Of a stretch of DNA of 41,495 bases, positions 2,458-39,040 are shown piece after piece; position 1 is the first letter of the stretch, and each line of letters starts with the position of its first letter. The translations under genes were made by a program, and so were the position numbers. The stretch is from contig JAZGDW010000151.1 of NCBI GenBank assembly GCA_036478295.1, positions 1-41,495 of the forward strand, read 5' to 3'. Origin of the DNA: Candidatus Krumholzibacteriia bacterium. GTDB lineage: Bacteria; Krumholzibacteriota; Krumholzibacteriia; WVZY01. The notes under the pieces were generated by a model. The model made no database searches and was not told the origin of the DNA. It saw only the letters and a program-made list of their open reading frames with translations.

Positions 2458-3561
2458 TTAGCTCTTTTGAAACTTGAGGTCCGCTGTCCGGTAGTTTTCT
2501 TGGGCTTTGTCAACTTGGCCAGCTTTGTCGTAGACAACACCAAGATAGTAATAGGCCTTGCCGTCATCGGGATTGATTTCGATCGCTCGTTTGAGGGGCG
2601 GAATCGCCTTGCTGGGTTCGTCCAGACGATTGTAACACAAACCGATGTGATACAAGATCGTCGGGTTTTCGGGATCCACGTGCAGCGCCTGCTGCAGGCT
2701 CTTCACCGCTTTGCCGTACAACCCTTTCTTGTCGTAGGCGAGTCCCAGGTAGAGATAAGCGTCTTTGTGGCGGCCGTCCAGTTTTATTGCTTTCTTGAAC
2801 GACTCGATGGCGTCTCCGATGCTGCCCCGCTCGAATAAGGCGAGGCCGAGATTGTAGTGTCCTTCCGCACTTCGCGGATCCAGTTCGATGGCCATTTCGA
2901 ATTCGTGAATCGCCCGCTCGTGCATGCCCGCATCGCCGTACAACGCGCCGAGGTTGAAATGAGCCGCGGCGCTTTGCGGATTGAATTGAACCGCTTTCCT
3001 GAAGAGCTGAAGGGCCGTGTCGCCCTCGCCTTTCAAGTCGAGCAGGTAACCGAGATTGGTGTATGCGTTGGAATGGGCGCGATCCAGATCGATGGCACGG
3101 CGGTAGCACCCCTCAGCTTCCTCGAAACGGTTGTGCCGCGCGAGGGTAACGCCGAACCGGTAATGACATTCGGCGTTCTCCGGCTCGAGCTCGATGGCGC
3201 GTTGGTGCTCCTTGGTGGCACGGTCCACGTCTCCCATCTGTTCGTAGATACGGCCCAGGTAGAAATGCGACAACGCCCGCTCCGGGTGCATCGATGCGAG
3301 CCGCTGATAACAGGGTACGGCGTCCTTCAGAAATTTGTTGTCCAGGAAGAACTTTGCCGCGGCCTCTAACAGTGTGCCGGATATTTCGGGGATCTCGATC
3401 AAGCGCCGACAGTAGTCCACCGCCTCGTCCCGCTCGCCGTTCGACCACAGCGAATGCACGAGCTCGTAGATGGCAAACTGGTCCCGGGGGTTGTCCTTGA
3501 CCCGCTGCTTCAACTGGCTCTCGTAACGAAGATCTTTTCTGGTTGGCGGCTGATCCGGCAA
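2458..3561 (-). CDS. Tetratricopeptide-repeat protein (367 aa, about 9-10 TPRs)
   Basis: Repeated 34-aa A-x-Y/F-NLG...A...F/Y...A...P units; TTG start with GGGAG RBS. Confidence 0.9.
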   Translation of the reverse strand: MPDQPPTRKDLRYESQLKQRVKDNPRDQFAIYELVHSLWSNGERDEAVDYCRRLIEIPEISGTLLEAAAKFFLDNKFLKDAVPCYQRLASMHPERALSHFYLGRIYEQMGDVDRATKEHQRAIELEPENAECHYRFGVTLARHNRFEEAEGCYRRAIDLDRAHSNAYTNLGYLLDLKGEGDTALQLFRKAVQFNPQSAAAHFNLGALYGDAGMHERAIHEFEMAIELDPRSAEGHYNLGLALFERGSIGDAIESFKKAIKLDGRHKDAYLYLGLAYDKKGLYGKAVKSLQQALHVDPENPTILYHIGLCYNRLDEPSKAIPPLKRAIEINPDDGKAYYYLGVVYDKAGQVDKAQENYRTADLKFQKS

Positions 3562-3592: not shown

Positions 3593-3635
3593 AAGCTAGT
3601 ACAGCCACAAAAATCCTGTCAAGAATTATTGACAG
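3593..3635 (-). promoter_or_regulatory. Putative sigma70 promoter for TPR-wzi-ubiA, with a palindrome over the -35
   Basis: Minus strand TTGACA (3622-3617), 18 bp, TAGCTT (3598-3593); inverted repeat CTGTCAA-N6-TTGACAG at 3616-3635. Confidence 0.5.
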
Positions 3636-3663
3636 AAGAGGAAACGTCTTCTGATCCGGCAGA

Positions 3664-4899
3664 TCAGACCTCTTCGTCGACAACCTGGATTTCGAGGTTG
3701 ATTTTGAGCGGGATGCTCTTCTTCATCTGTGATCGGGTAATGACCACAGGAACGGACACGCAGACCTCGTCACCGTCCCCTGACGGTGGCGGCGGAGCTG
3801 CCCGTGGTGGGGGCGGAGCCGCCCGTGGTGGGGGCGGAGCCGCCCGTGGTGGGAGCGGAGCTGCCCGCGGTGCCGGCGGCGGTTTGGGCCGGGCGGCCTT
3901 CGCTGACTCGGCCTCCTTGCGCTCGCTCGATTGAAAAGGATCCAGCACGAATTCGCCGTCGACAGCCTTTTCGGTCGGGCTGGACTCCGTGTCGTCGAGG
4001 TCAATGACCCGTCCTACCGTTTCATCGATTTCGTCCATTTTTCCCTCCTGGGCCGGCGCTTTTGCTTTTGTACGGCGCGCGGACGATCGTTTTTCGGATG
4101 CGGCCTTGCGCTTGGGCGGCGGCGGTGGGGCCGGTCGTGCAGTCTCGGCGTCATCGATCTCGCGCAGCGCGACGTCGACCACGTCGGTCACGGAGCGTTC
4201 TTCTTCGTCTGACGGGGGTGCGGCGGCTTTTCGGGCCGCATTCGTCCCCGCCCGCGTCGCGCGGGTCGGCGCCTTGCTTTCCCTGGATTTTTTCCGCGGC
4301 TGCTGGGTTTCGGACAAGCGATCTATCAGCTGGTTGTAGAGCATGCCGGCGATCGCCTCGAACGTTTCGTAAATCCCGGTCCCGACCGTGGCCACCGCCT
4401 CGAAGACCGGGACGTTGAGCAGGTTCAATTTTTCCGACAACGCCTTCACGGGGAGGGCTCCGTCGACGTCACGCTTGTTGTATTGGATCACCCACGGAAT
4501 GGTATCCAAAGTGAGGTCGTGCTCGTTGAGGTTCTCTTCCAGATTGCGGAGGCTCTCGAGGTTCTCCTCCATTTTCTCTGGGGTCGAGTCCGCCACGAAT
4601 ACGACGGCGTCGGCGCCTTTGAGAACCAGCTTACGGGTGGCATTGTAGTAGACCTGGCCGGGAACCGTATACAACAGCATTCGGGTGCGGTACCCGCTGA
4701 TTTCACCCAGTTCCAGAGGAAGGAAATCGAAGAAAAGGGTCCGGTCGGTCCGGGTTTTCATCGAGACCATCTTGCCCTTCGCGTCGGCGGGCATTTTTTC
4801 GTAGATGTACTCGAGATTGGTTGTTTTCCCGCTGAGCGCTGGTCCGTAATAGACCACTTTGGCGTTGATCTCAGCCCCCGAGTAATTGAAAACAACCAT
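3664..4899 (-). CDS. mglA: MglA-family small GTPase with long acidic/Pro-rich C-terminal extension (411 aa)
   Basis: From ATG 4899: EINAKVVYYGPALSGKTTNL, TDRTLFFDFLPL, LYTVPGQ, VFVADS, QYNKRD, closely matching Myxococcus MglA; about 215 extra C-terminal aa. Confidence 0.9.
   Translation of the reverse strand: MVVFNYSGAEINAKVVYYGPALSGKTTNLEYIYEKMPADAKGKMVSMKTRTDRTLFFDFLPLELGEISGYRTRMLLYTVPGQVYYNATRKLVLKGADAVVFVADSTPEKMEENLESLRNLEENLNEHDLTLDTIPWVIQYNKRDVDGALPVKALSEKLNLLNVPVFEAVATVGTGIYETFEAIAGMLYNQLIDRLSETQQPRKKSRESKAPTRATRAGTNAARKAAAPPSDEEERSVTDVVDVALREIDDAETARPAPPPPPKRKAASEKRSSARRTKAKAPAQEGKMDEIDETVGRVIDLDDTESSPTEKAVDGEFVLDPFQSSERKEAESAKAARPKPPPAPRAAPLPPRAAPPPPRAAPPPPRAAPPPPSGDGDEVCVSVPVVITRSQMKKSIPLKINLEIQVVDEEV
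3794..3877. repeat. 4 x 21-bp coding tandem repeat (RAAPPPP-like) in the mglA tail
   Basis: Units GGAGCYGCCCGTGGTGGGRGC at 3794, 3815, 3836 and a degenerate unit at 3857. Confidence 0.9.
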
Positions 4900-5043
4900 C
4901 TTTACCCTTTCGAATGTCCGTCGCCACCCCGTGTGGATGGCCGTAGGTCGGGCCGCCAGGAGCCCATTTGCCCCCTTTCGCCCACTGCACCTACCGGACA
5001 TGTCAGTGGTAGCTACCGTGTCCACCCCGACGTTGCGTGGTTG

Positions 5044-5060
5044 CGCAAAGAATGTGCCAA
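5044..5060 (-). promoter_or_regulatory. Sigma54 (-24/-12) promoter upstream of mglA
   Basis: Minus strand TTGGCACATTCTTTGCG = TGGCAC-N5-TTGC with exact GG-N10-GC spacing, about 145 bp before the mglA ATG. Confidence 0.7.
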
Positions 5061-5189
5061 AGAAAGCGGCGCCATCTGCGAAAAAACCGCTTAACTCCTT
5101 ATCTGAAAATCGTATACAATACTGCAATCGCCGGTACCGGGGATGCGGCCTTCGTGAACCATGCAATCCGCTCAAGTTCTTGTGATTTA

Positions 5190-6053
5190 ATGACGATAGC
5201 TCCGACGTTTTCCGCGGGATCCAACAACCGCCACCACCCGCCGCTGTCATTCGCCGTGGCTGCCGGCCTGGCGTCCGCCGTCCCCCACTGGCTGCTCTAC
5301 GCTGCCTCTCGTGTGGGAGGCGCAGTTCACTACTGCATGGCCGGGGACAAGCGGAGAAACTATCTCGCCAACACGCGATCACTCCCGAAACCGCGACGGC
5401 ACCGTCCGTGGCACGCATTTCAAAACCAGGCCCTCAACGTCCTCGAACTCCTGAAAGCGGCCAGCGAGGGGGAGGTGGCGTCGGACTTGTCCCTCCACGG
5501 CGAGCACACCATCCGCTCGGCGTTGGATCAGGGCCGCGGCCTGATCCTCACTACGTTCCATACGGGTAACTGGGAACTGGCGGGTCTCCAGCTGGCGCTC
5601 AGAGGGTATCCGGTAACCACCGTGGCCGGTGAGCAGTTACGAAAGGGTTGGTCCGATCAGGTGAAAGCGTTGAAGGAACGGTTCGGTCTGAGGATGGTCG
5701 GGCCCGGCGGCGGTGTGCGTGAACTGGTCCGCAACCTCCAAGCCAACCGGGTCGTCGCGCTGCATCTCGACGGCGACCTTTTCATCGGGGGACTCGAAGT
5801 GCTATTCTTCAACCGGCGCGTCCGGGTTCCGCGCGGCCCCGCACATCTCTCGCGGATTACCGGCGCACCGATCGCGTTTGCGTTCAGTCATCGCACCGGG
5901 AAAAGACAGCTCGAGCTTACCATCGAAAACAAAACCCCACCGCCGGCGTCGGCCGACGAAGAGCTGCGGTTGACACAGCGTCTCGTCACGCGCGTGGAGG
6001 AGCGCATCACCGAGGCGCCTGGGCAGTGGTGTATTTTTCGCCGGATCGAGTAA
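5190..6053 (+). CDS. Lysophospholipid/glycolipid acyltransferase (PatA/LpxL family)
   Basis: GRGLILTTFHTGNWELAG, V-x-FF...PRGPA-x-L, PGQW motifs; ATG 5190 chosen, start uncertain. Confidence 0.8.
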   Translation: MTIAPTFSAGSNNRHHPPLSFAVAAGLASAVPHWLLYAASRVGGAVHYCMAGDKRRNYLANTRSLPKPRRHRPWHAFQNQALNVLELLKAASEGEVASDLSLHGEHTIRSALDQGRGLILTTFHTGNWELAGLQLALRGYPVTTVAGEQLRKGWSDQVKALKERFGLRMVGPGGGVRELVRNLQANRVVALHLDGDLFIGGLEVLFFNRRVRVPRGPAHLSRITGAPIAFAFSHRTGKRQLELTIENKTPPPASADEELRLTQRLVTRVEERITEAPGQWCIFRRIE

Positions 6054-6069
6054 CGGAAAAGACAACTAC

Positions 6070-7245
6070 ATGAAGCTCGTTATTGTTTCCCAGTCGTACC
6101 ACCCCCGCCCGGGCGGCGTAACCGAGAATGTGTATCATTCCGCCGAGGTGTTGCGGCAGCGCGGCCATCGGGTAACGGTCGTCACCACCCATTTCGAAAG
6201 TCGGGACAACGGAAGTCACCCGGAACCCGACGTCGTCCGTATCGGCAGGAACGTCCTGGCACCCGTGAACGGCGCGTGGGTAAACGTCACCGTCGGCCAT
6301 GGCATTTACGGCAGACTGAAAGAGGTTCTGCATTCGCTCGACCCCGACGTCATTCACACGCATTGCCCCGCCGCTCCCACCCTGCCGTTGATGGCGCTGC
6401 TCGCGGCGCCGGCCCGTAGTCGTGTCGTGGGTACGTTCCACGCCGCGGGCAGGAGCATCATGGGATACCACCTCTTCAAACCGGTCATTCGACGTCTCCT
6501 CCAGCGTATCGACCGCAGGATCGCCGTGTCGAACGCCGCGATGGATCTTGCCAGCCGTTATTTCCCCGGTATGTACGACGTCATCCCCAACGGGGTCGAC
6601 TGCCGTCGATTTGCGCCGGAGCACCTGCCGCTGGATCATCTCCGGGATGACGCCTTCAACGTGCTTTTTGTGGGGCGCATGGACAAACGCAAGGGGCTGA
6701 AGTATCTCTTCCGTGCCGTCGCCTCCCTGGCCGGACGCACGTCCAGGCGGCTGCGTTTGATCGTGGTGGGCGATGACGGGCCGCGGCGCCATCTTCTTCC
6801 GGGCCTGCCCGGGAGAGTGGATCTCGTTTACACCGGTGTGGTGTCCAAGGATGAGCTGCCCCGATACCTTGCGTCGGGTGACGTGCTGTGTTCACCCGCC
6901 ACCGAGCGCGAAAGCTTTGGCATCGTCCTGCTGGAAGCCATGGCTTCCGGCATCCCCGTCATTGGCACCGGCATTCCTGGTTATCTGACCATCCTGCGCG
7001 ACGGCTGGAACTCGCTGGTGGTTCCCGCCAGGGACGCGCGCTCGTTGTCAGAATCAATCGAGAAGCTCATGAACGATGAGACTCTGCGCTGGAAACTTCG
7101 TAGCAACGCGCTGGACTTTGCGCAACTCTACCGATGGGACCGCATCGTCGACCGGTTGGAGGCGGTGTACCGCAGCGAACCAGCGGACGAGGTCGACCTG
7201 GTGCCTGCGTCGGCGACACCTTTCGCGCGGGCGCAGAAAGCGTAA
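6070..7245 (+). CDS. GT4 glycosyltransferase, PimA-like (phosphatidylinositol mannosyltransferase)
   Basis: PGGV, PVNG, DVIHTHCP, VGTFH, RIAVS, IPNGVD, GR..RKG and ESFGIVLLEAMA are colinear with PimA as recalled. Confidence 0.8.
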   Translation: MKLVIVSQSYHPRPGGVTENVYHSAEVLRQRGHRVTVVTTHFESRDNGSHPEPDVVRIGRNVLAPVNGAWVNVTVGHGIYGRLKEVLHSLDPDVIHTHCPAAPTLPLMALLAAPARSRVVGTFHAAGRSIMGYHLFKPVIRRLLQRIDRRIAVSNAAMDLASRYFPGMYDVIPNGVDCRRFAPEHLPLDHLRDDAFNVLFVGRMDKRKGLKYLFRAVASLAGRTSRRLRLIVVGDDGPRRHLLPGLPGRVDLVYTGVVSKDELPRYLASGDVLCSPATERESFGIVLLEAMASGIPVIGTGIPGYLTILRDGWNSLVVPARDARSLSESIEKLMNDETLRWKLRSNALDFAQLYRWDRIVDRLEAVYRSEPADEVDLVPASATPFARAQKA

Positions 7246-7247
7246 GC

Positions 7248-8495
7248 TTGACCCACCCACGCTATCTGAAACTCTGCTTCTTTTCATTCTGTTTCGCCCA
7301 GCTCATTTCGATATTCGGCGACCGGCTGCACCAGTTTTCCGTCGTGGGAATGATCGGTAAGGTCGCAGCCGGGTCGAGTCTGGAGCTCTTCCAGTTCGCG
7401 CTTTTCAGCCACCTGCCCGTTCTCCTCTTCGCACCGCTGTTTGGAAGCATCATCGATCGTTCCAACAAGGTGGCGGTGCTCATCGTGGTCGACGTCGTCA
7501 GGGGCTGCATCGTACTGGCGGTACCTGCGCTTTTCCACCTGTCGGGTAGCCTGTATGCGTTCTACGTTCCCACGCTTTTTCTCACCCTCGCCAACCTGCT
7601 CTTCTCCCCCGCCAAATCCGCGGTCGTCCCCGAGTTGTTCGGACCGCTGCGCCTGCTCAGGATCAACGCGGTGCTCTGGGGACTGGGCATCGTCGGCACC
7701 CTGGCCGGTTTCGTCACCGGGGGCTGGCTCTTCGACTTTCACACCTGGGAGATGAGCTTCTACTCGGATGCCGCAAGCTACTTCGTCTCGGTGCTTTTTC
7801 TGCTGCCGCTGATTGCGCTGTGGCGCTCCACCGAACGGCCACAGGTCGAGGTTCGCCCGCCAGGTGGAAGCGCCTGGCGCTGGTATTCCGGCGTCGCCAT
7901 GATTGGTGATTCAGTTCGGGAGGGGCTCGTTCACATCAAGACCAACCGTCAGGTCGCCTACTGCCTCATCACCCAGACAGCGCTGTTCGCCTGCCTGGGA
8001 GTGCTGTACGTTGTCGGCGTCGCGCGCATCCAGTCCGTCTTTCCATCGGAGAAAACTATCTACCTGAGTGCAGTCGCCTCCGCGGGAACCGTCGGCTTGC
8101 TCGCTGGCGCGGCCGTTGCCACTGTGCTTAGACGACTGTTCTCATCGAACCGCGTTATCGCCCACGCCACACTGCTCTTCGCCGTCACCTGCATGGGTGT
8201 CGCCGCGGCGCGGGGGCTCGTCGCAATAATGTCGTGGACATTCGTCATGGGGCTGGCCCTGTCACCCATCTTTATCATCACGGAAACGCTGCTTCAAATC
8301 CATGCCCCGCGGTCGTATCGGGGGCGCATATTTTCGAGTCGCGAGGTGGTGACGAAGACGGCGTTTCTCGCGTTCTCCATGGTCGCAGTCGTGCTCAGTG
8401 CGCTGCTCAGCAAAGCCTCGATCATGCTGTTCCTAGGCGTAATTCTTGCAGGAACGGGTGTTGTACTCGAAAGAAAAGACTTTCTCAAAGTTTAG
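7248..8495 (+). CDS. MFS transporter (DHA3/LplT-like)
   Basis: About 12 TM segments; AQLISIFGD, GSIIDRSNK motif A, PAKSAVVP, RGRIFS; TTG start 2 nt after the GT4 stop. Confidence 0.85.
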   Translation: MTHPRYLKLCFFSFCFAQLISIFGDRLHQFSVVGMIGKVAAGSSLELFQFALFSHLPVLLFAPLFGSIIDRSNKVAVLIVVDVVRGCIVLAVPALFHLSGSLYAFYVPTLFLTLANLLFSPAKSAVVPELFGPLRLLRINAVLWGLGIVGTLAGFVTGGWLFDFHTWEMSFYSDAASYFVSVLFLLPLIALWRSTERPQVEVRPPGGSAWRWYSGVAMIGDSVREGLVHIKTNRQVAYCLITQTALFACLGVLYVVGVARIQSVFPSEKTIYLSAVASAGTVGLLAGAAVATVLRRLFSSNRVIAHATLLFAVTCMGVAAARGLVAIMSWTFVMGLALSPIFIITETLLQIHAPRSYRGRIFSSREVVTKTAFLAFSMVAVVLSALLSKASIMLFLGVILAGTGVVLERKDFLKV

Positions 8496-8524
8496 AATCG
8501 TTCCCTGGAAGGGATGATCCTGCC

Positions 8525-8965
8525 ATGCGCATCATCGAAAAGATGCTCACCGAGATGTTCGCCCGGCTGCTGAATGTGGAAATTGGCCCAAGGGTGTTGG
8601 AAAAACTCGTACCCGTAGTCGAGGGCGTTTCGGACAAAGTCCATGGAACGCTGGACCTCGAGACGGTGCAGGGTGAAAATACATTTCGCGCGCTGATCTG
8701 CAGCATGATCGTACATGGCTGGGGACTGGGAATGCACCCCGACAACAACGCCGATCACAACCTCGACGGCAAGCCGGTCGAAGTGAAGGTGTGCAAGGAC
8801 ATCCTCGTGCCGATCGACACGCTCAAGTCCATCCGCTACGTCAAGAAAGACGAGTACGGCCGCGTCAAGAAAGCACTTTTCGAACCGGATCAAAACGCCA
8901 GAATCTGGACCCAGATCGACGACATGCTGGTGCGGATCGCCAAAGAAAAATGGCAGGAAGAATAA
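8525..8965 (+). CDS. Hypothetical soluble protein (146 aa)
   Basis: ATG 8525 after GGAAGGG; C/G-ending codon use typical of real genes; no family recognised. Confidence 0.7.
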   Translation: MRIIEKMLTEMFARLLNVEIGPRVLEKLVPVVEGVSDKVHGTLDLETVQGENTFRALICSMIVHGWGLGMHPDNNADHNLDGKPVEVKVCKDILVPIDTLKSIRYVKKDEYGRVKKALFEPDQNARIWTQIDDMLVRIAKEKWQEE

Positions 8966-9041
8966 ACCGGCTCGAACCCGCCGAAACAGCTTCCCGGTAG
9001 CCCGGTCGGAGCACCTAACTGCGTGAGTTCTGTGGTGAGAT

Positions 9042-9064
9042 AGCCCGACTTGACTCGTCGGGCT
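9042..9064. terminator. Hairpin between convergent genes
   Basis: AGCCCGAC-ttgactc-GTCGGGCT 8-bp stem; no strong U-tract. Confidence 0.4.
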
Positions 9065-9678
9065 TAGAAGACCTTTTGCCCTTCGGCGAGGATCTCGTTC
9101 AGCGCTTCTTTGAAGTAATCCGTGGACTTGGCGACATCGGCCCCGACCTTTTCCTTATAGAGCTCCCAAGATTTCTTGATCTCGTCACCCAGGACCGTCA
9201 TCAGGTTGCCGTCGATCAGCGCCTGGTCACGTTTTTCCTGGTTGTAGCAGAGGATATCCGACACCAGAACACGGGCCAGGCGTCTGGCCCTGGCCTCCTT
9301 ACGGTTGTTCTTTCCGGGCGCTTGCGGCCGCGGCTGGCTTACCTCGCTCGGCCTTGGGGTGGTCGGAGCAGCTACGGGGGCTGCCGCGGCTACTGGAGCG
9401 GCTTGAGCGGGTTTAGGGGTGGTCCCGGCCACTGGAGCGGCTTGAGCGGGTTTGGGGGCGGTCCCGGCTACTGGAGCGGCTTGAGCGGGTTTGGGGGCGG
9501 TCCCGGCTACCGGAGCGGCCGGAGCGGCAGGTTTCTTGGCGGTAGCGGCCACCACCGTTGGCGGCACCAGGGTGAACACGGCCCGGCACTGCGGACATCT
9601 CACCTTGACCGGATTCTCGGGGATCTTTGACTCCGGTAGAAAGTACTTCGCCGCACAGCCTTCACATCGAACGATCAT
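9064..9678 (-). CDS. Zinc-ribbon (MJ0042-like) + Pro/Ala linker + RomX-like domain protein
   Basis: N-terminal CEGC...RCPQC; C-terminal RLARVLVSDILCYNQEK...NLMTVLGDEIKKSWELYKEKV...F..ALNEIL matches the RomX pattern as recalled. Confidence 0.8.
   Translation of the reverse strand: MIVRCEGCAAKYFLPESKIPENPVKVRCPQCRAVFTLVPPTVVAATAKKPAAPAAPVAGTAPKPAQAAPVAGTAPKPAQAAPVAGTTPKPAQAAPVAAAAPVAAPTTPRPSEVSQPRPQAPGKNNRKEARARRLARVLVSDILCYNQEKRDQALIDGNLMTVLGDEIKKSWELYKEKVGADVAKSTDYFKEALNEILAEGQKVF
9388..9519. repeat. About 3.4 x 39-bp coding tandem repeat (PKPAQAAPVAGTA)
   Basis: Units start at 9388, 9427, 9466, with a partial unit at 9505. Confidence 0.9.
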
Positions 9679-9796
9679 CGGGATACCTTTGTCATTGGTC
9701 TCTGAGATTCATGCCAAGGTTCTAAAATGCACGCGTTTCAACAATTCGCAACGATCGCGAGCAACCGCGGGGCCACCATGGCCGCCTGCGGAAACA

Positions 9797-9813
9797 AGCA
9801 ACATTTGCGCCAA
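9797..9813 (-). promoter_or_regulatory. Sigma54 (-24/-12) promoter upstream of the zinc-ribbon/RomX-like gene
   Basis: Minus strand TTGGCGCAAATGTTGCT, exact GG-N10-GC, in the recG/ZnR intergenic gap. Confidence 0.6.
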
Positions 9814-9826
9814 ATGGCACGCTATT

Positions 9827-11926
9827 TCAGCCAACCGGCTGTGACAGGCCGCCCGTCTGTGTCTCCTGCAGGTATTCACGGCAAAGGCGCGCTTCGGGAC
9901 TATCGAGGCGAGGATCCGCGGCCATCAGCCTCTTGACGTGGCGCGCCGCGATCTCTACCAGGCGCTGGTCCACCGCCGGGTTTGCGACCTTGAGCCCCGG
10001 GACACCGTGCTGCCGTACGCCGAGGAATTCTCCCGGGCCCCGGATGCGAAGATCCTCCTCGGCGATGCGGAAACCATCATCGATCCGGTCGAGAATCCCC
10101 AGGCGCTCGCGCCCGATGCGTGAAGTACCCTCACCAAGCAGCAGAAAGCAGAACCCGCGCTCTCGTCCCCGTCCCACGCGGCCGCGTAGTTGGTGCAGCT
10201 GGGAGAGGCCATAACGTTCGGGATGATGAACCACCATGATGGTCGCCTCGGGGACGTGGACGCCGACCTCCACCACAGTCGTCGTCACTAGCAGTCGGAT
10301 GCGGCCGGCGGCGAAATCTGCCATGGCGGCTTCCTTCTCGGCGAAGACCATCCGCCCGTGGAGAAGGCCCACCGGCTGATCCCTGAAGGTGGTCCGTGAC
10401 AGCTCCTCGTAGGCAGAGACCGCCGCCTCGAGGTCCTGTTTCTCCGTCTCTTCGATCGCCGGATATAGAAAGTAGGCGCGGGCACCTCCCTCCAGCTTGT
10501 CGCGGACGAATTCGTACATTGCTTCCTTTTTTTCCGGTGCCACCAGCCTCGTCTTCACCCCGGAACGCCCCGGCGGCATCTCGTCGATAACGGACAAGTC
10601 CAGATCCGCGTACGCGGTCAAGGCCAGCGTGCGGGGGATCGGGGTTGCGGTCATTACCAGCAAGTGCGGGTTCCGATTCCGCGTGAGCAGGGCCGCGCGC
10701 TGGCGAACACCGAAACGGTGTTGCTCATCAACGACCACCACGCCGAGGCGGTCGAAAGTGACACCTTCCTGGATCAGGGCGTGGGTTCCGACCACCACCC
10801 GCGCAGTGCCGGCCGCTATATCAGCGTGAATGGCCCGCTTTTCGGCGGGCTTCAGCGAGCCGATCAACAACGACACGGGCACGTCGACCTCGTCAAAAAA
10901 TCCGGCGAGGGTCCGAGCGTGCTGCACCGCCAGGATTTCGGTCGGCACCATCAAGGCGCCTTGATGACCGGCTTCCACCGCCGCCAACATGGCCGCGCCA
11001 GCGACAATGGTCTTGCCCGAACCCACGTCCCCCTGAAGCAGGCGGTGCATGCCACGCTCGCTGGTCAGGTCGTTGTGGATCTCATCCAGCGTCCTGCGTT
11101 GCGCCGCGGTCAGTTCGAACGGCAGGGCGTCGATATAGCGTTTCTCCAGCTCGAACCCGCCATTCAGGCGCGGCCGATCACGCTGGTCCAGATGGCGCCG
11201 CCGCTGCAGCGACAGCACGAGTTGCAGATAAAACAGCTCTTCAATTTTGAGGCGTCTCAACGCCTCCTTGAAGTGCGTGCCGTCTTCAGGGAAATGGATT
11301 CCCTGCAGGGCCTGCCGCCGGCCGCATAGCTTCTCGGCCCGCATGAGACCGGCCGGCAGGTTTTCACGAATGAGATCTCCGAACTCGCGCAACCCTCTCG
11401 CGATGAGCTCCCTGAGAAACAGTTGCGAGACACCACGGGTGAGCGAATAGACGGGAACTACACGGCCCGTGTGAAGGAGTTCGGCGTCTAGCGCCTCCTC
11501 CAGCACTTCGAACTCCGGATTCACCACCTCCCTGGCCCCACGAAAGTAGGTCAGGGTGCCGGAGAAAATCGCTTCGTTCCCCGGTTTGAGGTGTCTGGCG
11601 AGGTAGGGCTGGTTGAACCACACAATCTGGACGATGCCGGTGTCGTCGCCCACCGCGGCTGCGATGCGCGACCGGCGGCCATGGCGGCCCCTCGGTTGGG
11701 CAACCGTCAGGATCTGGCCGAGGAAACACGTTTCTTCACCAATATTTAAGTCCTTGATTTTGGATAGGTTACGACGATCGTAGTACGTGCGCGGGAAATG
11801 CGTCAGCAACTCCTCGACAGTTTCGATCCCGAGCTTGCGCAGCCGCTGCGCGCGAACCGGTCCTACACCCTTGAGGAACTGGCACAGATCCGCCAGACCA
11901 CGCTGTCGCTTTTCAGGTCGCACCAC
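9827..11926 (-). CDS. recG: ATP-dependent DNA helicase RecG
   Basis: [53 protein letters not shown] start after AAGGAGG. Confidence 0.97.
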
Positions 11927-11936
11927 CTCGTCCTCC

Positions 11937-11989
11937 TTGCCAACGGCGTGCACATTTGCTATCTTAGGTGAAATTTACTGGGAGGTCTA
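11937..11989. promoter_or_regulatory. Bidirectional sigma70 promoter for rpmB/recG
   Basis: Plus strand: TTGCCA (11937-42), 17 bp, TGn-TATCTT (11960-65). Minus strand: TAGACC (11989-84), 17 bp, TAAGAT (11966-61). Confidence 0.6.
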
Positions 11990-12530: not shown

Positions 12531-14183
12531 TCAGACCTCTTCCAGTTTCATCCGTTCCTGTGTGAGCAGAATTCGCGCGGCCAGGTCCGCAGGGTTTCGT
12601 CGCAGATATGCCTGCAGGATATGATCGGCCTCTTTGCCCCGACCGAGGCGCCGCATCGCGACGACCAGACCCTGCACGGCGTCCGAGTAATTGCGGTTGA
12701 TCGACAAACTGGATTCGTACTCCTCAAGGGCCTGTGACAGGTTATCGGTTTGGAAATGAATGTCGCCGAGGATCTTGTGCAGGTCGGCGTAGTCCTGGTG
12801 CAGCTCCAGCGCGTCCGTGATCAGCGACTCGGCACGGTCATATTTTTTGCGCTTGAAATAGACGAGTGCGAGTTGCTTCTTCGCCTCGATGTATTCCGGG
12901 TTGATCTCCAGCGCCGTCTTGAGATGTTTCTCGGCCGTCCCGAGTTCATCCCGCTCGAGGTACACGCCCCCGAGAAAACAGAGTGCGTCGGCATGCTTGG
13001 GATTCCTACCCACGACCCGCTCGAAACACTCCGCCGCCTCTTGCCAGTCCGATGCCCTGAGCCGCTCGACGCCCAGATCGAGGTCGAGCGCGAACAGGTT
13101 CGGATCCAGCGTCAGCGATTGTTTGAACTCCTGGTTGGCGCCCGATTCATCCTGGAGCGCGTGTAGCGTGAGTCCCAACATGTAGTGGGCACGCGCGTAG
13201 TCAGGCGAAAGCTCCAACGCTCTCTGCAGTCGTTCCTTTGCTTTGGCGTACTCGCCTAGCGAGAGGTGGACGATACCCAATTGGCACTGGATATCGGAGT
13301 ATCCCGGTTTTTGTGACACCGCTTTGACCAGGCATTCTCGACTCGAAGCGTAGTCGTGGCGCCGGTACTGCATGACCCCGAGACAATAGAGTCCCTCCGC
13401 GTAGTCGGGATTGCATCCCACCGAGCGTTTGAAGCACTCGACGGCCCGTTCCTCCTTGCCACAGTGGAGATAGGACAGCCCGAGCCTGCATTGCAGGTCC
13501 GCGTAGTCGGGCTTGAGCGTGGCGGCTTCACCGAAACAAACCACGGCCTGATCGTAATCTCCGCGGTTGAAGGCACTGTTTCCCTCTTTTATCTGATTCT
13601 GAAAACTGGAGTTCTCCATCACCACCCGCTTCAGCTCCTGAAGCTGGGGGTGTTCAAAAGAACGTGAATCGAGCTTTTCCACCAACAGACGGCTGAGCGG
13701 ATTCGGTGCTATCCGGGTCAGCTCGAGCGCCCGTGAGAAGCACTGGCTCGCCTGATCGAAGAAGCCCGCGTCGTGCAGGGCAATGCCCAGATAACACGTG
13801 GCCTCGGCGTACTCGGAGTTCAATTCGACCGCTTTGGTCAAATGTTCGATCGCCGAATCCAGATCGTCTTTTTGGTGATAAACGACGCCGAGGTAGTAGT
13901 AGAGGTCGGGGTAGTGGGGATTGACGGTCAGCGCCGTTTTGAAATGGCCGCGCGCCCGGTCCAGTCTGCCGCGGTAGAATTCGGCCATCCCCAGCTTGCT
14001 GTGCGCTTCCGCCGCGTAGAAAGCCCCCAGCTTTGCGATGGCGCTATCGCGACTCTTCTCACCGGCAACAACCTTTTCCAGATATTCTACGGCTCGATCG
14101 TAGTCGCCCTCGTTGAAGTACCGTATTCCCTTCTGGTAGTGTTCGCTGGCAGAGCTTCTAAAAAGCCTGCTCCAGAGAGACAA
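12531..14183 (-). CDS. Large TPR protein (about 550 aa) immediately downstream of ftsZ
   Basis: About 14 TPR units (P-x-YADL, YYLG); TTG 14183 with GGAGG RBS, 14 nt after the ftsZ stop. Confidence 0.9.
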   Translation of the reverse strand: MSLWSRLFRSSASEHYQKGIRYFNEGDYDRAVEYLEKVVAGEKSRDSAIAKLGAFYAAEAHSKLGMAEFYRGRLDRARGHFKTALTVNPHYPDLYYYLGVVYHQKDDLDSAIEHLTKAVELNSEYAEATCYLGIALHDAGFFDQASQCFSRALELTRIAPNPLSRLLVEKLDSRSFEHPQLQELKRVVMENSSFQNQIKEGNSAFNRGDYDQAVVCFGEAATLKPDYADLQCRLGLSYLHCGKEERAVECFKRSVGCNPDYAEGLYCLGVMQYRRHDYASSRECLVKAVSQKPGYSDIQCQLGIVHLSLGEYAKAKERLQRALELSPDYARAHYMLGLTLHALQDESGANQEFKQSLTLDPNLFALDLDLGVERLRASDWQEAAECFERVVGRNPKHADALCFLGGVYLERDELGTAEKHLKTALEINPEYIEAKKQLALVYFKRKKYDRAESLITDALELHQDYADLHKILGDIHFQTDNLSQALEEYESSLSINRNYSDAVQGLVVAMRRLGRGKEADHILQAYLRRNPADLAARILLTQERMKLEEV

Positions 14184-14197
14184 GCGTACCTCCAAAT

Positions 14198-31642: not shown

Positions 31643-32461
31643 TCAGGGGCCGGCTTGACGATCGGCAACGACGCAGACGGTCGCAGCAAGTTGTTTCAAG
31701 ATTGGGGCTTGCTCCATGAGGGTCTCAGTGGAGCGCACGAGCGGGAACAGGCCGTCCGGCGTGTTCTTGGTCACGAACAGAAAACAGGTCACGCTGCGGA
31801 CGGAGAAACCCGCCCCTTCCAGGTAGCCGCGGATTGCCTCAGGCGTTGCCGGTTGATGATACCGGTACGGGTGGTACGTGGAACGGTCGACCCCGTCCGC
31901 GGGGTAGCACATGGTGGGCAGGCGCCGCCGGAGCCAGGGCAACCTTACGGCAACCCGCTTGAACCGCTCGACGATGCCGTAATAGTTCGGCGTCGACAGG
32001 ACCAGCCGCCCGCCGTCCTTGAGCACTCGGTGGCACTCGCGTAAGACGGCCGGGCGGTCGTCCTCGAAGACGTGCTCGAAAGTCTCGACCATCGTGATGC
32101 CATCGAACTGGCCGTCGCCGAATGGAAGCCGGGCGGCGTCGCCCCCCACCACCCGGAACTCGGCCCCGTTCTCGTGGGCGATACGGGCCCCAACCTCGAA
32201 TTGATCCACCACCAGGTCCATCCCCACCACTCGCATTCCGAGCGCCTCCAGGGCCATCACGTTGTATCCCCACGCCGAGCCGATGTCGAGCACGCTGGCG
32301 CCTGGGTTGCCCACCAGCCACCGGTCCACCTCCGAGAATCGCCTCAGCACCATGTGACGGCGGCCCCTGGAACCGAGGTACCAGTGGCGGAGCAGGTCCG
32401 GCATCTCCTCGGCCTTCATTCCCGCGGGGACACGGATATCGGGGAGTTCGAATTTAGCCAT
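31643..32461 (-). CDS. Class I SAM-dependent methyltransferase
   Basis: VLDIGSAWG, GDAARLPFGDGQFD, EHV, RVLKDGG..STPN; ATG overlaps the GT-C stop. Confidence 0.9.
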   Translation of the reverse strand: MAKFELPDIRVPAGMKAEEMPDLLRHWYLGSRGRRHMVLRRFSEVDRWLVGNPGASVLDIGSAWGYNVMALEALGMRVVGMDLVVDQFEVGARIAHENGAEFRVVGGDAARLPFGDGQFDGITMVETFEHVFEDDRPAVLRECHRVLKDGGRLVLSTPNYYGIVERFKRVAVRLPWLRRRLPTMCYPADGVDRSTYHPYRYHQPATPEAIRGYLEGAGFSVRSVTCFLFVTKNTPDGLFPLVRSTETLMEQAPILKQLAATVCVVADRQAGP

Positions 32462-33962
32462 CGTCGACGCGGTGGAGTCGGTACAACGTGTAGAAAAACG
32501 GGCCTGGTTTCTTGATGCCGAGGTTGTCGACGCGAACCACCCGTACGCTTTCAAAACGGTGACCGTTGATAACAGCACCGTCAAAGCGCTCCGCCACGGG
32601 GACCCGGTCTATGAAGTAGTCCACACGCGGGTATGCTCGCAGATCCAGATAGAGACCGCCTTCCACGATCTCGTCGTAACTGTGTGTCTCGCGCAACTCA
32701 CCGGTGGCGTTTTCCACCAGGCCCCCGAGGTCCAACACGCGGCGATGGGAATAGAATGCCAGGTACCCGATGTCGGCTGCGGCGACCACGGTTCCCTCCG
32801 GTGTGGTATTCCGGATGAAGAGACCGAGCCTTTTGAGGTTATGAGTGAGATCGTGCGAGAACGCACGCGATGGCCCAGCAATGACCACGAAGTACAGGAC
32901 GACGTTGATAAGTACGGCGGCGAGCGTCACCAGCCCCGTGAACACCCGCCCGCTACGACTGCTCCAGGCCACGGCCCTGGAGCAGTCCGCGAGCGCGACG
33001 AAGCCAAGTACAACAACGAAAGGACTGGTCAGCAGCATGTAACGCGACAGCACCTGAATATCGAAGATCGCGTAGGCAAGAGGCAGCGAGACAATCCACA
33101 ACAAGAAGAACCGGCAGTCCGCCGAAAAGATGCGGCTCCTCCGCCTCAGCACGACGGCCGCTATGATAATCAGCAGGACCGGAATCGCTTCCGCGCTGCC
33201 GACAATCTTCGCCATGGGAATCAGTTTTTGGAGCAGCAGGCCGGGGTTGAGAACCAGACCGCCGCTCTTCGCTCCAGCGGTGTTCGGCAAGAACGCGCCG
33301 ATGTGCAGCCTGGCGAAAGCGAGCCACGGCAAGAGCAGCGCCGCGTACACGCCTGCGGTTCGCGCGACGCAGGCGGAGCTTGCCTGCCGCCGTCGAACGA
33401 CAGCCGACACCAGGTACACGGGGAACAACAGATAGGTTTCGGGCCGGAGCAGCGCGGCGGCGGCCATAAAGAATCCGAGCTGCAACGCCCGGCGCGGGTC
33501 ACGCAAGGCGCCCAGCGAACTGATGCCGACCGCCGTCATCATGGCAACGGCGGAGGAAGTCTCCATGGCGAGCGCCGTCCATCGAACCAGCCACGCGTGT
33601 GCGCCGAACGCCAGCGTGCATAGAAAGCACATCCATGGACCGAGGCCCAGCGAGCGGGCCAGCGTGAACATGAGGAGCAGCGTGGCGATGCCGGCCAGCC
33701 ACGAAAAAATACGGCTGGTGATCATCAGTCGCTCTCCCCCACCCACGATACGTCCGGCGGCGGCCTGCACCATCACCCACAGCGGGCTCGTCGTACCGAA
33801 CGAAACTTCACCGGGGTTGAAACTGTACTCGCCGTGCGTGATGATATTGTTGGCATACTGGATATGGATATAGCCATCGTCGGTGAAGCCAGCCCGGAGC
33901 GGCGTCAGCAGCGCCACGAACACGATCACCGGTACGACGACTCCCCAGTATTGCTTTTTCAC
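32454..33962 (-). CDS. Polytopic GT-C glycosyltransferase (AftB/GT89-like)
   Basis: DDGYI..YA.N...FNPGE...TSPLW, MET, RPE, PNT..AK, DIG...VLDLGGLV; many TM helices. Confidence 0.7.
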   Translation of the reverse strand: MKKQYWGVVVPVIVFVALLTPLRAGFTDDGYIHIQYANNIITHGEYSFNPGEVSFGTTSPLWVMVQAAAGRIVGGGERLMITSRIFSWLAGIATLLLMFTLARSLGLGPWMCFLCTLAFGAHAWLVRWTALAMETSSAVAMMTAVGISSLGALRDPRRALQLGFFMAAAALLRPETYLLFPVYLVSAVVRRRQASSACVARTAGVYAALLLPWLAFARLHIGAFLPNTAGAKSGGLVLNPGLLLQKLIPMAKIVGSAEAIPVLLIIIAAVVLRRRSRIFSADCRFFLLWIVSLPLAYAIFDIQVLSRYMLLTSPFVVVLGFVALADCSRAVAWSSRSGRVFTGLVTLAAVLINVVLYFVVIAGPSRAFSHDLTHNLKRLGLFIRNTTPEGTVVAAADIGYLAFYSHRRVLDLGGLVENATGELRETHSYDEIVEGGLYLDLRAYPRVDYFIDRVPVAERFDGAVINGHRFESVRVVRVDNLGIKKPGPFFYTLYRLHRVDDG

Positions 33963-33968
33963 CTCGAT

Positions 33969-35282
33969 CTACTTCCGGTTGGAGGTGATGAACTGCAGGT
34001 AATCGGCCAGTTGTCCGGCGGTTTCTTCTCGAGTACAACCCACGACCACCGACAGGTCGTAGTCCCTGTCGAGCGAGCCGTTCTTATATTTGTCGTACAT
34101 GAGCGCGATCCGCCCGGCAATCGCGTCCTCATCATCCTGCGGCGCAACTTCACCGCGACGCCGCTGCACAATGATGTCCTTCGCTTCGCCGTCCGGCGCC
34201 AGGGCGAGAATGGGCCGCGCGGCCCCCAGGTACTCGTACAACTTTCCCGGAACAATCCCACGGTACGCCGGATCCGTGTGCTTGAGCAGGAGCAGTATAT
34301 GAGAACTGCGCTCCAGTTTCAACGATTCTGGATGCGCCACGCTGTCGCGGAACTCGACGATCGACGACAGCCCGAGAACCTCTACATGCCGCTCGTTCTC
34401 GCTCTCGCGCGGGCCCACGAAGATGACACGGCATCGCTCACGCGCGTCTTCGTCGCGGTCGAGAAAAACTTTCAAGCCATTGAGAAAAGGAATCGCGCTT
34501 CTCTTCTGCGTAAGCATACCGGCATGCAGAATTCGAAACTCATCGCGCGGGGGCTCACAGTCACGGTACGCCTCGAATTTTTCATGGTCGTACCCGTTCG
34601 GAATCAGGCGGATGTCTCTCAATCCCTGGTAGCGGCGGCGAAGGAGCTCCTCGTGCCAGCGACTGGTCACGATCACGGAGGCGGCAGAGCATATGGCGCG
34701 TTCGTACCGCCGGTGCAGCCATGCGTGCACACGGGTCGGAACGGGCAGGAGATACAGATTCATCCACGGGTCCCGGAAATCCGCCACCCAGGGCAGCGCG
34801 GACAGCTTGTGCAGCTTGTGGCCGATCAGGTGCGCGGTCTCCGGCGGGGATGTGGAGTAGATCGCATCGAATTTGTGCCGCGCGAGAAGTCGCCGGCCCA
34901 TGCGCACTGCGAACGGGTACCAACCGATGTAGGTATCGGGCACGAGGGTCCACGCGCCCAACTTTCTCAGGTGCGAGAACCTGCGGCTCGACCGAACCTG
35001 GGCTCTTTCTCCCATCCGTTTCTTTCGTCCCAAGCGCGAGAGAATGAACTGGCCACTCAACGATTCGGTGCGGAACACGGAACACGACTCGGGAACCTCG
35101 CCGAGAAGGCTGCGATCGTCGATCCAGAACGCGTCGGGACGCGGCGATACCACGGTCGCCTGCCAGCCGAATTTCTCCAGATATTTCACGAAGCCCAGCG
35201 GCCGGTGAACGCCGCCGCCGCCACTGGGAGGAAAAAACGGCACGATCATCAACAGTTGCCTCGAAGCGCTCCCTCGTTTCAT
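33969..35282 (-). CDS. GT4 glycosyltransferase
   Basis: FPP.GG.GV.R...VKYL, STSPP, DFRDPW, IPNGYD, GKLYEY; ATGA overlap with wzx. Confidence 0.9.
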   Translation of the reverse strand: MKRGSASRQLLMIVPFFPPSGGGGVHRPLGFVKYLEKFGWQATVVSPRPDAFWIDDRSLLGEVPESCSVFRTESLSGQFILSRLGRKKRMGERAQVRSSRRFSHLRKLGAWTLVPDTYIGWYPFAVRMGRRLLARHKFDAIYSTSPPETAHLIGHKLHKLSALPWVADFRDPWMNLYLLPVPTRVHAWLHRRYERAICSAASVIVTSRWHEELLRRRYQGLRDIRLIPNGYDHEKFEAYRDCEPPRDEFRILHAGMLTQKRSAIPFLNGLKVFLDRDEDARERCRVIFVGPRESENERHVEVLGLSSIVEFRDSVAHPESLKLERSSHILLLLKHTDPAYRGIVPGKLYEYLGAARPILALAPDGEAKDIIVQRRRGEVAPQDDEDAIAGRIALMYDKYKNGSLDRDYDLSVVVGCTREETAGQLADYLQFITSNRK

Positions 35283-36838: not shown

Positions 36839-36842
36839 GGGG

Positions 36843-37808
36843 TCATTGTTTCGGCAGGTATTGCATCACTGCGGACGCAATCCTCGCGCCCAGTGAACGC
36901 CAGCGCAGTGTCACATACGGGTACGAACGGGCTCCGAGTGCCTGCTTGTACTCGACGAGCGAGTCCGAGCCGAGGCTGCCCCCAAGGTTGTATTCGCTGT
37001 AGCCCGCTTCGCACGCGTGCCGGATGCACGTCGCGTAGAGCAACGTACCGGCTTGCGTGCCACGGCTGCTGGCCGTTGTGACGCCGTTCCAAGCGATGAC
37101 GGTGTTCTTGAAATAGAAATTCAAGTGTCCGCCGAGAAGCGTATCATCCTTCCATGCGAGAAACAATTTGACGCTTTCGCCTCCCCGGTCCAGCAGGTCG
37201 ATGAACAGGCTTTCCGGGTACCTGACCCGCTGCTGCCAGGCCGCCGATCGCTCCTTGTAAATCCCGTAGTAGCTTTTCACCTCGTCGACCGACGCCGCCT
37301 CTCGAACCACCAAGCCCTCGCGCTCGGCTCTTCGGGTCTGGCGGCGCTTTGATTTTTCGAAATGATCGGACCATAAGCCGTCGAACCCCGGCCCCAGGTC
37401 GAGCACGTGCGTGGCGTCGTGGATACGCTTCAACGCGGGCGCGGACAAGCGGCCATGAAAATCCACCAGCCCGATCTCATATACACCCCGCCGGCTCTTC
37501 ATGGCAACAAACGTTTCCAGCAACGATCGTTCGACCGCCGAATCCCCAAGGGTCACAGGACCACCGTACGTACCGAACGGCAGCGACCACAGCCGCCGGG
37601 CCGCGCCCTTGCGGATCTCGAAAAACGGCAGGTATCCCTGCAGGCATCCCGCGTCAACGGCGGCGATGATGCCTAGGTGTGTTGCCGGGTAGGCGCCGGC
37701 AAGACTTTCGAGCCATATCGTTGTGTGGTAGAACGTCGACTGCTTGGATTGCAGCGCCAGTTCTTCGAGTCCGGCGGGGAGATGATGAAGTACCTCGACT
37801 TGCATCAC
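36843..37808 (-). CDS. FemAB-like/GNAT protein
   Basis: TFYH...W, SLPFGTYGGP, RRQTRRAEREGL, YNLGGS, YKQALGA. Confidence 0.8.
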   Translation of the reverse strand: MMQVEVLHHLPAGLEELALQSKQSTFYHTTIWLESLAGAYPATHLGIIAAVDAGCLQGYLPFFEIRKGAARRLWSLPFGTYGGPVTLGDSAVERSLLETFVAMKSRRGVYEIGLVDFHGRLSAPALKRIHDATHVLDLGPGFDGLWSDHFEKSKRRQTRRAEREGLVVREAASVDEVKSYYGIYKERSAAWQQRVRYPESLFIDLLDRGGESVKLFLAWKDDTLLGGHLNFYFKNTVIAWNGVTTASSRGTQAGTLLYATCIRHACEAGYSEYNLGGSLGSDSLVEYKQALGARSYPYVTLRWRSLGARIASAVMQYLPKQ

Positions 37809-39013: not shown

Positions 39014-39040
39014 GTGGATACTCGAATCGAAGTTGCGCCG

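Follow-up and report, generated by a model that had tools for sequence, protein, structure and literature searches.

A phylum-wide MglA/RomX cassette with sigma54-type sites in Candidatus Krumholzibacteriota, probably connected with type IVa pili

What does a RomX domain do in an organism in which RomR, its partner in Myxococcus xanthus, is not found, and which GTPase does it serve? This question is raised by a 41,495-nt stretch of DNA from a Candidatus Krumholzibacteriia bacterium (contig JAZGDW010000151.1; lineage Ca. Krumholzibacteriota), hereafter the window, in which mglA2 (3664-4899, minus strand), encoding a paralogue of the GTPase MglA, lies 4.2 kb from znr-romX (9064-9678, minus strand), encoding a zinc ribbon (ZnR) fused to a RomX domain, with the small gene hyp146 (8525-8965, plus strand) convergent to the latter. 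In Myxococcus itself, the question of whether RomX is a GEF (a factor for guanine nucleotide exchange) or an effector, and its role apart from RomR, are unsettled. An initial annotation of the window had proposed a co-regulated, rewired polarity switch with neither mglB nor romR adjacent, possibly coupled to division.

Based on a survey of 151 genomes of the phylum (families coded f1-f9) and on the comparison of 40 regions from 39 genomes, we conclude that the locus is probably a variant of the MglA/RomX module that lacks RomR and extends over the phylum; it probably serves type IVa pili and includes one uncharacterised core protein (hyp146). The regions, which with the window give 40 romX loci, were picked so that every family and, as far as known, both genes were represented, and are not a random sample. 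The genome of the window organism measures 3.5 Mb and is 91% complete.

Gene order and sigma54-type sites

The order recG, znr-romX, convergent hyp146, divergent mglA2 and TPR1 (a gene for a tetratricopeptide repeat, TPR, protein) recurs, with orientation kept, in all nine families (40 loci). A RomX domain was found in 147 of the 151 genomes and hyp146 in 149 (and in 40/40 romX loci), and mglA2 is present at 36 of the 40 romX loci, five of these copies being degenerate. In f1 and f2, romX and mglA2 lie on the same contig, at most 7 kb apart, in 21/27 genomes. The initial annotation had rightly placed the locus outside the myxobacteria, and the two features which it had proposed to check in relatives, synteny and sigma54-site conservation, are both conserved across the fetched loci.

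The bare GG-N10-GC motif is uninformative, with 637 matches in the window. Sites were scored over 13 positions against what we take to be the sigma54 (-24/-12) consensus. By this measure mglA2 (site at 5044-5060, minus strand, 161 nt upstream of the start) and znr-romX (9797-9813, minus strand, 135 nt upstream) are each preceded by a 12/13 match, with a weaker second site upstream of znr-romX (9760-9776), and hyp146, a gene overlooked by the initial annotation, by a 10/13 match 91 nt upstream (8434-8450, plus strand), within the 3' end of an MFS gene. Sites scoring at least 12 number just 28 in the 3.5 Mb of the genome, with an expectation of 0.0016 per 400 nt. When conserved sites are counted in the loci (score of at least 9 of 13, within 300 nt upstream; expectation from shuffles), the mglA2 site is kept in 33/37 loci (1.4 expected), the romX site in 32/37 (1.6 expected) and the hyp146 site in 35/40 (1.7 expected), with control genes at background: TPR1 1/39, recG 0/31, wzi 1/20 and GT4 0/11 loci. 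The exceptions span whole lineages, since the site is missing for mglA2 in f3 and for romX in f6. The sigma54 motif initially noticed ahead of mglA2 and of the RomX-like gene has therefore stood up in both cases. A search for rpoN, also proposed at that time, found it in the genome and in 61/61 phylum genomes tested, and about nine receiver-bearing sigma54 activators were recognised in the genome (judged from sequence). The -24 GG/-12 GC consensus and the conserved position of the sites are thus accompanied by rpoN and enhancer-binding proteins in the same genome.

The fusion protein, hyp146 and two MglA GTPases

ZnR-RomX (204 residues) is composed of a zinc ribbon (9571-9678), a Pro/Ala linker and a RomX three-helix domain (9064-9315), and the in-frame fusion was detected in 36/40 loci. 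Residues 1-36 form an MJ0042-type four-cysteine zinc ribbon (Pfam E 9e-14), whose best PDB matches are GltJ (7zok, E 8e-5) and 2nb9 (E 5e-4), the latter presumably the ZitP zinc ribbon. The C-terminal 83 residues match RomX (8zna_A, E 2.8e-11, 74 residues gap-free; next match E 0.48), which confirms the RomX-like domain of the initial annotation, and across most of the phylum the domain is 56-100% identical to that of the window, with the MglA-contact residues kept. According to a preprint (10.1101/2024.02.20.581209), R11, R14 and D19 of M. xanthus RomX bind MglA-GTP, and L75, R76 and W87 bind RomR (preprint numbering; for the first two helix-3 residues the PDB chain numbering gives 76 and 77). 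By homology and by its helix-1 residues the protein belongs with RomX (R11, R14 and D19 are present in the window and kept in 36/40, 39/40 and 36/40 orthologues), whereas the RomR-binding residues of helix 3 are not kept: the arginine position holds R or K in 0/40 orthologues (counted by eye). Additionally, 38/40 chains end in Phe, which in the window protein lies a few residues before the Trp87 position, and this Phe may stand in for the RomR-contact Trp.

The fusion linker carries a tandem repeat with a 39-nt unit (9376-9527, minus strand), and the MglA2 tail a Pro-rich one with a 21-nt unit (3785-3879, minus strand). The tandem-repeat linkers described initially are thus real in both window genes; exact repeats are mostly genome-specific (2/37 fusion proteins and 3/37 MglA2 proteins of the fetched loci, window included in both counts), and the conserved feature is the low-complexity linker. 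In 31/40 fetched loci, covering all nine families, the gene directly 3' of or overlapping znr-romX (e.g. L035:8250-9194) combines a degenerate receiver-like N-terminus (by eye) with an RsbW-type HATPase_c_2 domain; it is a candidate receiver partner for RomX, and is absent from the window.

The 146-residue product of hyp146 is a single-copy signature protein of the phylum with no recognisable fold. No match was obtained in Pfam (best E 0.003, below cut-off), NCBIfam, PDB sequences or, in usable form, the Atlas. The model (pLDDT 76), in which three helices at the N-terminus are joined by a small sheet and one helix at the C-terminus, had no Foldseek match at E<=0.001, and its best VIA score was Z 6.4, over residues 1-83 only. 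Several of the top structural rows are sigma-factor region 2, weak matches with Z up to 6.4, and Z below 8 is the noise range for helical bundles; this lack of a structural match is no proof of a new fold. A full profile search gave just 35 clusters, most of them partial sequences, and included a few distant relatives of full length. Among these, P0126 (E 3e-42) and P0141 (E 2e-12) suggest, at the level of sequence, that the family extends beyond the phylum; 5 Gemmatimonadota genomes yielded no copy of it.

MglA2 (411 residues), a Group 1 MglA paralogue, consists of a GTPase domain (4330-4899) and a tail of about 220 low-complexity residues containing three conserved motifs. The MglA gene of the initial annotation was borne out, as residues 3-187 align gap-free with M. 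xanthus MglA (PDB 6hjh, E 1.5e-71). In an AlphaFold2 model, the GTPase is folded and the tail mostly disordered. The P-loop GKT, the switch-I Arg-Thr, TVPGQ and NKxD are intact in 32/32 MglA2 proteins outside f6 and lost in 5/5 f6 copies, where the P-loop threonine or the switch motifs are gone. In the tail, an acidic amphipathic motif (alignment consensus, residues ~236-250; 4150-4194, minus strand) gave a profile with E<0.01 matches in 15/35 tails, 10 of which were seed sequences. A C-terminal beta-alpha-beta motif (3667-3768, minus strand) is kept even in the f6 pseudo-GTPases and is absent from MglA1 and from Gemmatimonadota MglA loci; it had no family or Atlas match, and no clear fold in the monomer model. 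The f6 copies (L068-L072) have decayed to 27-31% identity, retaining this motif and a strong sigma54 site. In f3 only (L061-L064), where mglBA1 is missing, the C-terminal motif and the zinc-ribbon core share a similar short sequence, a likeness that may reflect a common ligand or mutual binding. The idea that the motif is a homologue of the zinc-ribbon core was rejected (profile comparison probability 0.8%, not significant). In f3, f4, f5, f8 and f9, a single-domain response regulator lies directly 3' of mglA2 (e.g. L045:8200-8619), which is not so at the f1/f2 locus.

A second GTPase is encoded elsewhere in the genome. A recR-mglB-mglA1 operon on another contig (C249), for which the coding strand shows no sigma54-type site, encodes an MglA1 that is 54% identical to MglA2. 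In view of this operon a switch without MglB is not supported; what does hold is the initial statement that neither mglB nor romR adjoins the locus. MglA1 and the active MglA2 proteins form separate clades (support 99/97 and 89/81). MglA (E<=1e-30) was found in 129/151 genomes and a roadblock protein in 118/151, with a single PF03259 match in each positive genome; no MglC, the second roadblock protein, was seen among these 118, although a divergent copy could escape. The MglB proteins of the phylum keep an acidic C-terminal helix, and in MglA such a helix is received by an alpha-5 pocket with K181 and K185 (PMC6785124). K181 and K185 are present in 21/21 MglA1, and in MglA2 in 5/32 and 4/32, respectively; in the window MglA2, which has no adjacent mglB, they are E181 and G185. 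The genome search for romR proposed initially found the RomR layout (receiver, disordered linker, conserved C-terminal helix) in 0/22 receiver proteins of the 91% complete genome, a search made with neither a RomR profile nor a positive control. A short RomR motif, likewise with no positive control, had no match in the window genome or in 21 phylum genomes.

Which of the two GTPases would RomX serve? The window MglA2 has the acidic RomX-contact residues E108, E111 and E115. On the basis of these residues MglA2 was considered as the preferred RomX partner, and this was rejected because orthologues keep them no better than MglA1 does: E108 occurs in 1/32 MglA2 orthologues, and position 111 is acidic in 16/32 MglA2 against 21/21 MglA1. 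Among f6 genomes, those with mglBA1 (n=37) have a RomX that is 56-70% identical to that of the window, and those lacking it (n=19) have one that is 33-65% identical (median 41%), leaving out one partial match and three genomes without a match; hyp146 scores show no drop in the latter. In f3, where MglB occurs in 0/10 genomes and at most one MglA is left (beside romX in five listed cases), RomX is 38-55% identical to the window, and all four D19 substitutions fall in this family. Because RomX diverges in f6 and f3 where mglBA1 is missing, its conservation seems to track mglBA1 more closely than the neighbouring MglA2, although the evidence is mixed and these patterns are few independent events with no statistic attached. 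The dedicated pairing of RomX with its neighbour, which the initial annotation implied, thus fits poorly, and RomX engaging both MglA1 and MglA2 is probably the best fit to the sequences. There is also dispute over the starting assumption that RomR/RomX works as a GEF: RomX is an MglA-GTP effector, not a GEF, in Dinet et al. (10.1101/2024.10.31.621274), and exchange activity for RomX alone is reported in 10.1101/2024.02.20.581209.

Type IVa pili as the probable output, and the competing explanations

The window genome contains a pilB-pilT-pilC-pilS-pilR-pilA cluster, a pilM operon, further PilT-family ATPases and a bactofilin; flagellin was not found in this genome (91% complete). Sigma54-type sites precede pilA (11/13), pilB (10/13), pilM (10/13) and a pilT paralogue (12/13). 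Across the phylum, PilM (E<=1e-30) occurs in 113/151 genomes, 112 of which have MglA, and in a single one (G131, 85% complete) of the 22 genomes without MglA; in f3, MglA and PilM occur in the same six genomes. Because the 1e-30 cut-off lies close to the f6 scores, 32 genomes were rechecked without it, and true PilM matches (E<=3e-25) appeared just in G131 and in five of seven MglA-positive controls. An orthologous PilB (60-63% identity) was found in G131, in 7/7 of these controls and in 0/24 other genomes tested. That the cassette regulates type IVa pili is, in our judgement, fairly probable, and pili are likely a better candidate for its output than division. The coupling to division suggested initially is poorly supported: between ftsZ and recG the run is broken by rpmB (L28; 11994-12185) on the plus strand (parting the dcw-TPR2 genes from recG and romX), and in f5, f8 and f9 recG is preceded by other genes. 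The sole observation favouring a division link is a sigma54-type site before divIVA. The gene (L185, G000:C79:4268-5556; 12/13 site upstream) encodes a 357-residue DivIVA-domain protein in a diderm, a possible polar landmark.

Homologies, gene order, site conservation, co-occurrence and residue patterns are what we observe, and from them we infer binding, polar localisation, actual use of sigma54 and pilus control in the model towards which we lean, though not strongly: the cassette would be the sigma54-inducible arm of a RomR-free, two-GTPase control of type IVa pili in Krumholzibacteriota. The housekeeping recR-mglB-mglA1 operon would supply the canonical GTPase and the GAP (GTPase-activating protein) for it, and the sigma54 programme driving pilA, pilB, pilM and the pilT paralogue would also turn on znr-romX, mglA2 and hyp146, with a PilR-type activator as the obvious candidate. 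ZnR-RomX, as an effector or adaptor, would use helix 1 of RomX to bind MglA-GTP (probably both MglA1 and MglA2), and its GltJ-like zinc ribbon would give a second contact in cis, most plausibly with the acidic helix at the C-terminus of MglB; a single chain would thereby link MglA-GTP to its GAP. We favour such an adaptor because in GltJ the zinc ribbon binds to the C-terminal helix of MglB and makes GAP efficiency fourfold higher (PMC11135422), because this helix is kept in the phylum and because RomX behaves as an effector in Dinet et al.; the bridging of MglA-GTP to MglB by the ribbon is put forward tentatively, by analogy, and has somewhat less than even standing with us. Complex prediction with the zinc ribbon, an MglB dimer and zinc scored 0.00 in two runs, in which the controls were likewise not folded, and so speaks neither for nor against this contact. 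MglA2, its catalytic motifs intact, would act as a second GTPase with little coupling to MglB, resembling in function the orphan SofG or the MglA of Bdellovibrio, with tail motifs for anchoring or oligomerisation, and hyp146 would be a co-regulated factor.

Several observations weigh against this model. Most of the MglA-less genomes rechecked keep a divergent PilB/PilM/PilT-like cluster (~40% identity), and only a small number of independent events underlie the co-loss of MglA and pili (part of f3, together with what are probably one or two lineages in f6). The divergent cluster, with a PilB-like (~40%), a weak PilM-like and a PilT-like protein (e.g. G001:C1:135648-148196, G014:C13 and G132:C1:74704-85399), is by its sequence a second, uncharacterised type IV filament system. 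The regulon is not restricted to pili, since the divIVA gene has a 12/13 site; the absence of RomR is weak, since its search lacked a positive control; and MJ0042-type zinc ribbons have differing ligands, ZitP binding PopZ (PMC11135422). None of the best 80 of 578 confirmed Gemmatimonadota loci has a sigma54 site or a neighbouring MglA, and hyp146 occurs in 0/5 genomes there. In 4/5 f6 genomes with a pseudo-GTPase, R11 has become Met although MglA1 is intact, which suggests, from the residue pattern, that MglA2 and not MglA1 was the RomX partner there. Finally, of the 22 genomes without MglA (E<=1e-30), most still have znr-romX and hyp146, which would therefore have some MglA-independent role.

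This last point is the starting point of an explanation in which ZnR-RomX and hyp146 form an MglA-independent signalling unit, RomX being an adaptor for receiver domains that works with the pseudo-receiver/RsbW-like kinase encoded just 3' of it in most relatives, with MglA2 merely a co-regulated neighbour. It would account for the HATPase_c_2 gene 3' of romX in nine families and for the lone receiver gene 3' of mglA2 in five of them, it agrees with RomX folds being often fused to receiver domains (10.1101/2024.02.20.581209), and the sigma-factor region 2 rows of hyp146 (weak, up to Z 6.4) would suit it. These Z values lie, however, within the helical-bundle noise, the kinase gene is absent at the window locus with no full-length orthologue found in the window genome, and the MglA-binding face is the best-kept surface of RomX and relaxes when mglBA1 is lost, so we consider this explanation improbable. 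A dedicated GTPase-GEF pair of MglA2 and ZnR-RomX without MglB, with TPR effectors and an output tied to division, is closest to the initial annotation and, to us, still more improbable. The conserved adjacency (within 7 kb in 21/27 f1/f2 genomes), the shared sigma54 sites, E108, E111 and E115 in the window MglA2, the R11 change in f6, the retention of MglA2 and RomX without MglB in f3, the divIVA site and the exchange activity reported for RomX alone in the one study (10.1101/2024.02.20.581209) would all be expected from it; the poor keeping of these acidic residues in MglA2 orthologues (position 108 in 1/32, position 111 acidic in 16/32 against 21/21 MglA1), the four D19 substitutions in the very family whose genomes have MglA2 as their single MglA or have no MglA at all, the broken dcw linkage (rpmB; absent in f5, f8 and f9), the TPR1 gene without a sigma54 site and kept where MglA2 is lost, and the effector role of RomX in 10.1101/2024.10.31.621274 all speak against it.

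Least probable of all, in our view, is that the genes share only a neighbourhood and a sigma54 regulon and that their products do not cooperate, RomX being a relic and the zinc ribbon functional. Each of the three genes has a promoter of its own, as many as five genes can be inserted among them, many genes with no relation to the cassette are also preceded by sigma54 sites, and the Gemmatimonadota fusion lies near neither MglA nor hyp146; nevertheless, a relic would hardly be expected to stay 56-100% identical across most of the phylum with its MglA contacts, nor order and orientation to be kept in all nine families. The favoured two-GTPase model may also be extended in a way that we regard as unlikely, if less so than any of these three explanations: ZnR-RomX would replace the RomR/MglC/RomY layer in a single chain, as a built-in timer that detects MglA-GTP with RomX and passes it to MglB by way of the zinc ribbon, the MglA2 tail would include an acidic helix resembling that of MglB along with a motif for oligomerisation, hyp146 would be a polar landmark with a fold not yet described, all would be sigma54-gated together with the pilus genes, and MglA2 would independently have replaced mglBA (f3) or decayed to a pseudo-GTPase (f6).

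Neighbouring genes and known systems

Between mglA2 and hyp146, the window has acyltransferase, GT4 glycosyltransferase and MFS genes (5037-8495, plus strand; Pfam; the start of the first gene is uncertain), a variable insertion outside the core cassette, of which all three genes are present in f1, part of f5 and f9, the MFS gene alone in f2, and none in f3, f4, f6, f7 and f8. They resemble a unit for glycolipid synthesis and flipping, the best match of the acyltransferase being the phosphatidylinositol mannoside acyltransferase family (below cut-off). The initial annotation correctly placed an all-TPR gene directly downstream of mglA: TPR1 (2458-3561, minus strand; 367 residues) lies 102 nt 3' of mglA2, beyond an inverted repeat (3614-3637, minus strand) that is a candidate terminator and also contains a perfect sigma70 -35 hexamer, and TPR1 probably has its own promoter. 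On the other side, recG (9827-11953, minus strand) is the usual upstream neighbour of znr-romX, and TPR2 (12531-14195, minus strand; 554 residues, all TPR) starts 2 nt past the ftsZ stop. The TPR gene described as fused to the ftsZ operon is indeed in the same run as ftsZ, as a separate gene with no protein fusion. Both TPR proteins show generic TPR similarity only, among 51 TPR-like ORFs in the genome; TPR1 has a sigma54 site in 1/39 loci and is retained in the three loci that have lost MglA2, and the idea that they are SgmX-type effectors is not supported. Upstream of mraZ (31643-40462) lies a cluster for polysaccharide modification and export, with a methyltransferase, a GT4, a flippase and further sugar-pathway genes (by eye).

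A literature search returned no account of the cassette and no text joining Krumholzibacteriota and MglA, although the Foldseek table of the preprint 10.1101/2024.02.20.581209 may list such fusions. Apart from hyp146 and the MglA2 tail, the components are already known: RomX without RomR (Gemmatimonas), a zinc ribbon and RomX in one chain, and orphan Group 1 MglAs. In the S1 Table of PMC9481161, 28 of 29 genomes with RomX also have RomR, the exception being Gemmatimonas aurantiaca (GAU_1577). Among the best 80 of 578 confirmed Gemmatimonadota loci, 66 have the ZnR-linker-RomX arrangement in frame (by profile), most others being cut by contig ends or frameshifted; both MglA copies of these bacteria are untailed and lie beside roadblock genes in 9/10 loci, unlike MglA2. 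These genomes (L175-L184) have two MglA genes each, one type with a ~30-residue insertion before the last helix. The same fusion design in a phylum with cultured members makes the question testable.

Zinc ribbon and RomX also share one chain in the Desulfuromonas ZnR-REC-RomX protein (A0A2N6E6P0; 10.1101/2024.02.20.581209), whereas the window protein has a Pro/Ala linker in place of the receiver domain. GltJ of M. xanthus (ZnR-linker-GYF) has a related zinc ribbon (7zok, E 8e-5) beside an MglA-GTP-binding element; in contrast, the window protein is soluble, with no GYF or membrane part, and its MglA-binding element would be RomX rather than a linker motif. With the orphan Group 1 MglAs SofG (M. 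xanthus) and Bdellovibrio MglA (PMC4316618), MglA2 has in common the Group 1 motifs, the lack of an adjacent mglB and a link to type IV pili; it differs in its 220-residue tail with three conserved motifs and its decay to a pseudo-GTPase in f6. TPR1 and TPR2 are, like SgmX and Bd2492, all-TPR proteins, and are encoded near an MglA gene, but SgmX has 1,060 residues (PMC7668184) against 367 and 554, and the similarity is generic, with no shared regulation.

The closest comparison is with M. xanthus itself. The RomX domain is homologous to the three-helix RomX of that species (MXAN_3350, PDB 8ZNA), with R11, R14 and D19, and both organisms have a coupled mglB-mglA and type IVa pili in the genome. 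The window protein differs in its N-terminal zinc ribbon, in the loss of the RomR-binding arginine and in a chain ending in Phe before Trp87, and the module differs in that no RomR or MglC was found, in its own sigma54-type promoter and in a second, tailed MglA nearby. Compared with the M. xanthus switch, a near-universal, RomR-free RomX fused to a domain related to an MglB recruiter amounts to a natural simplification, for which the phylum also offers two natural experiments: mglBA lost with MglA2 kept, and MglA2 decayed with mglBA kept.

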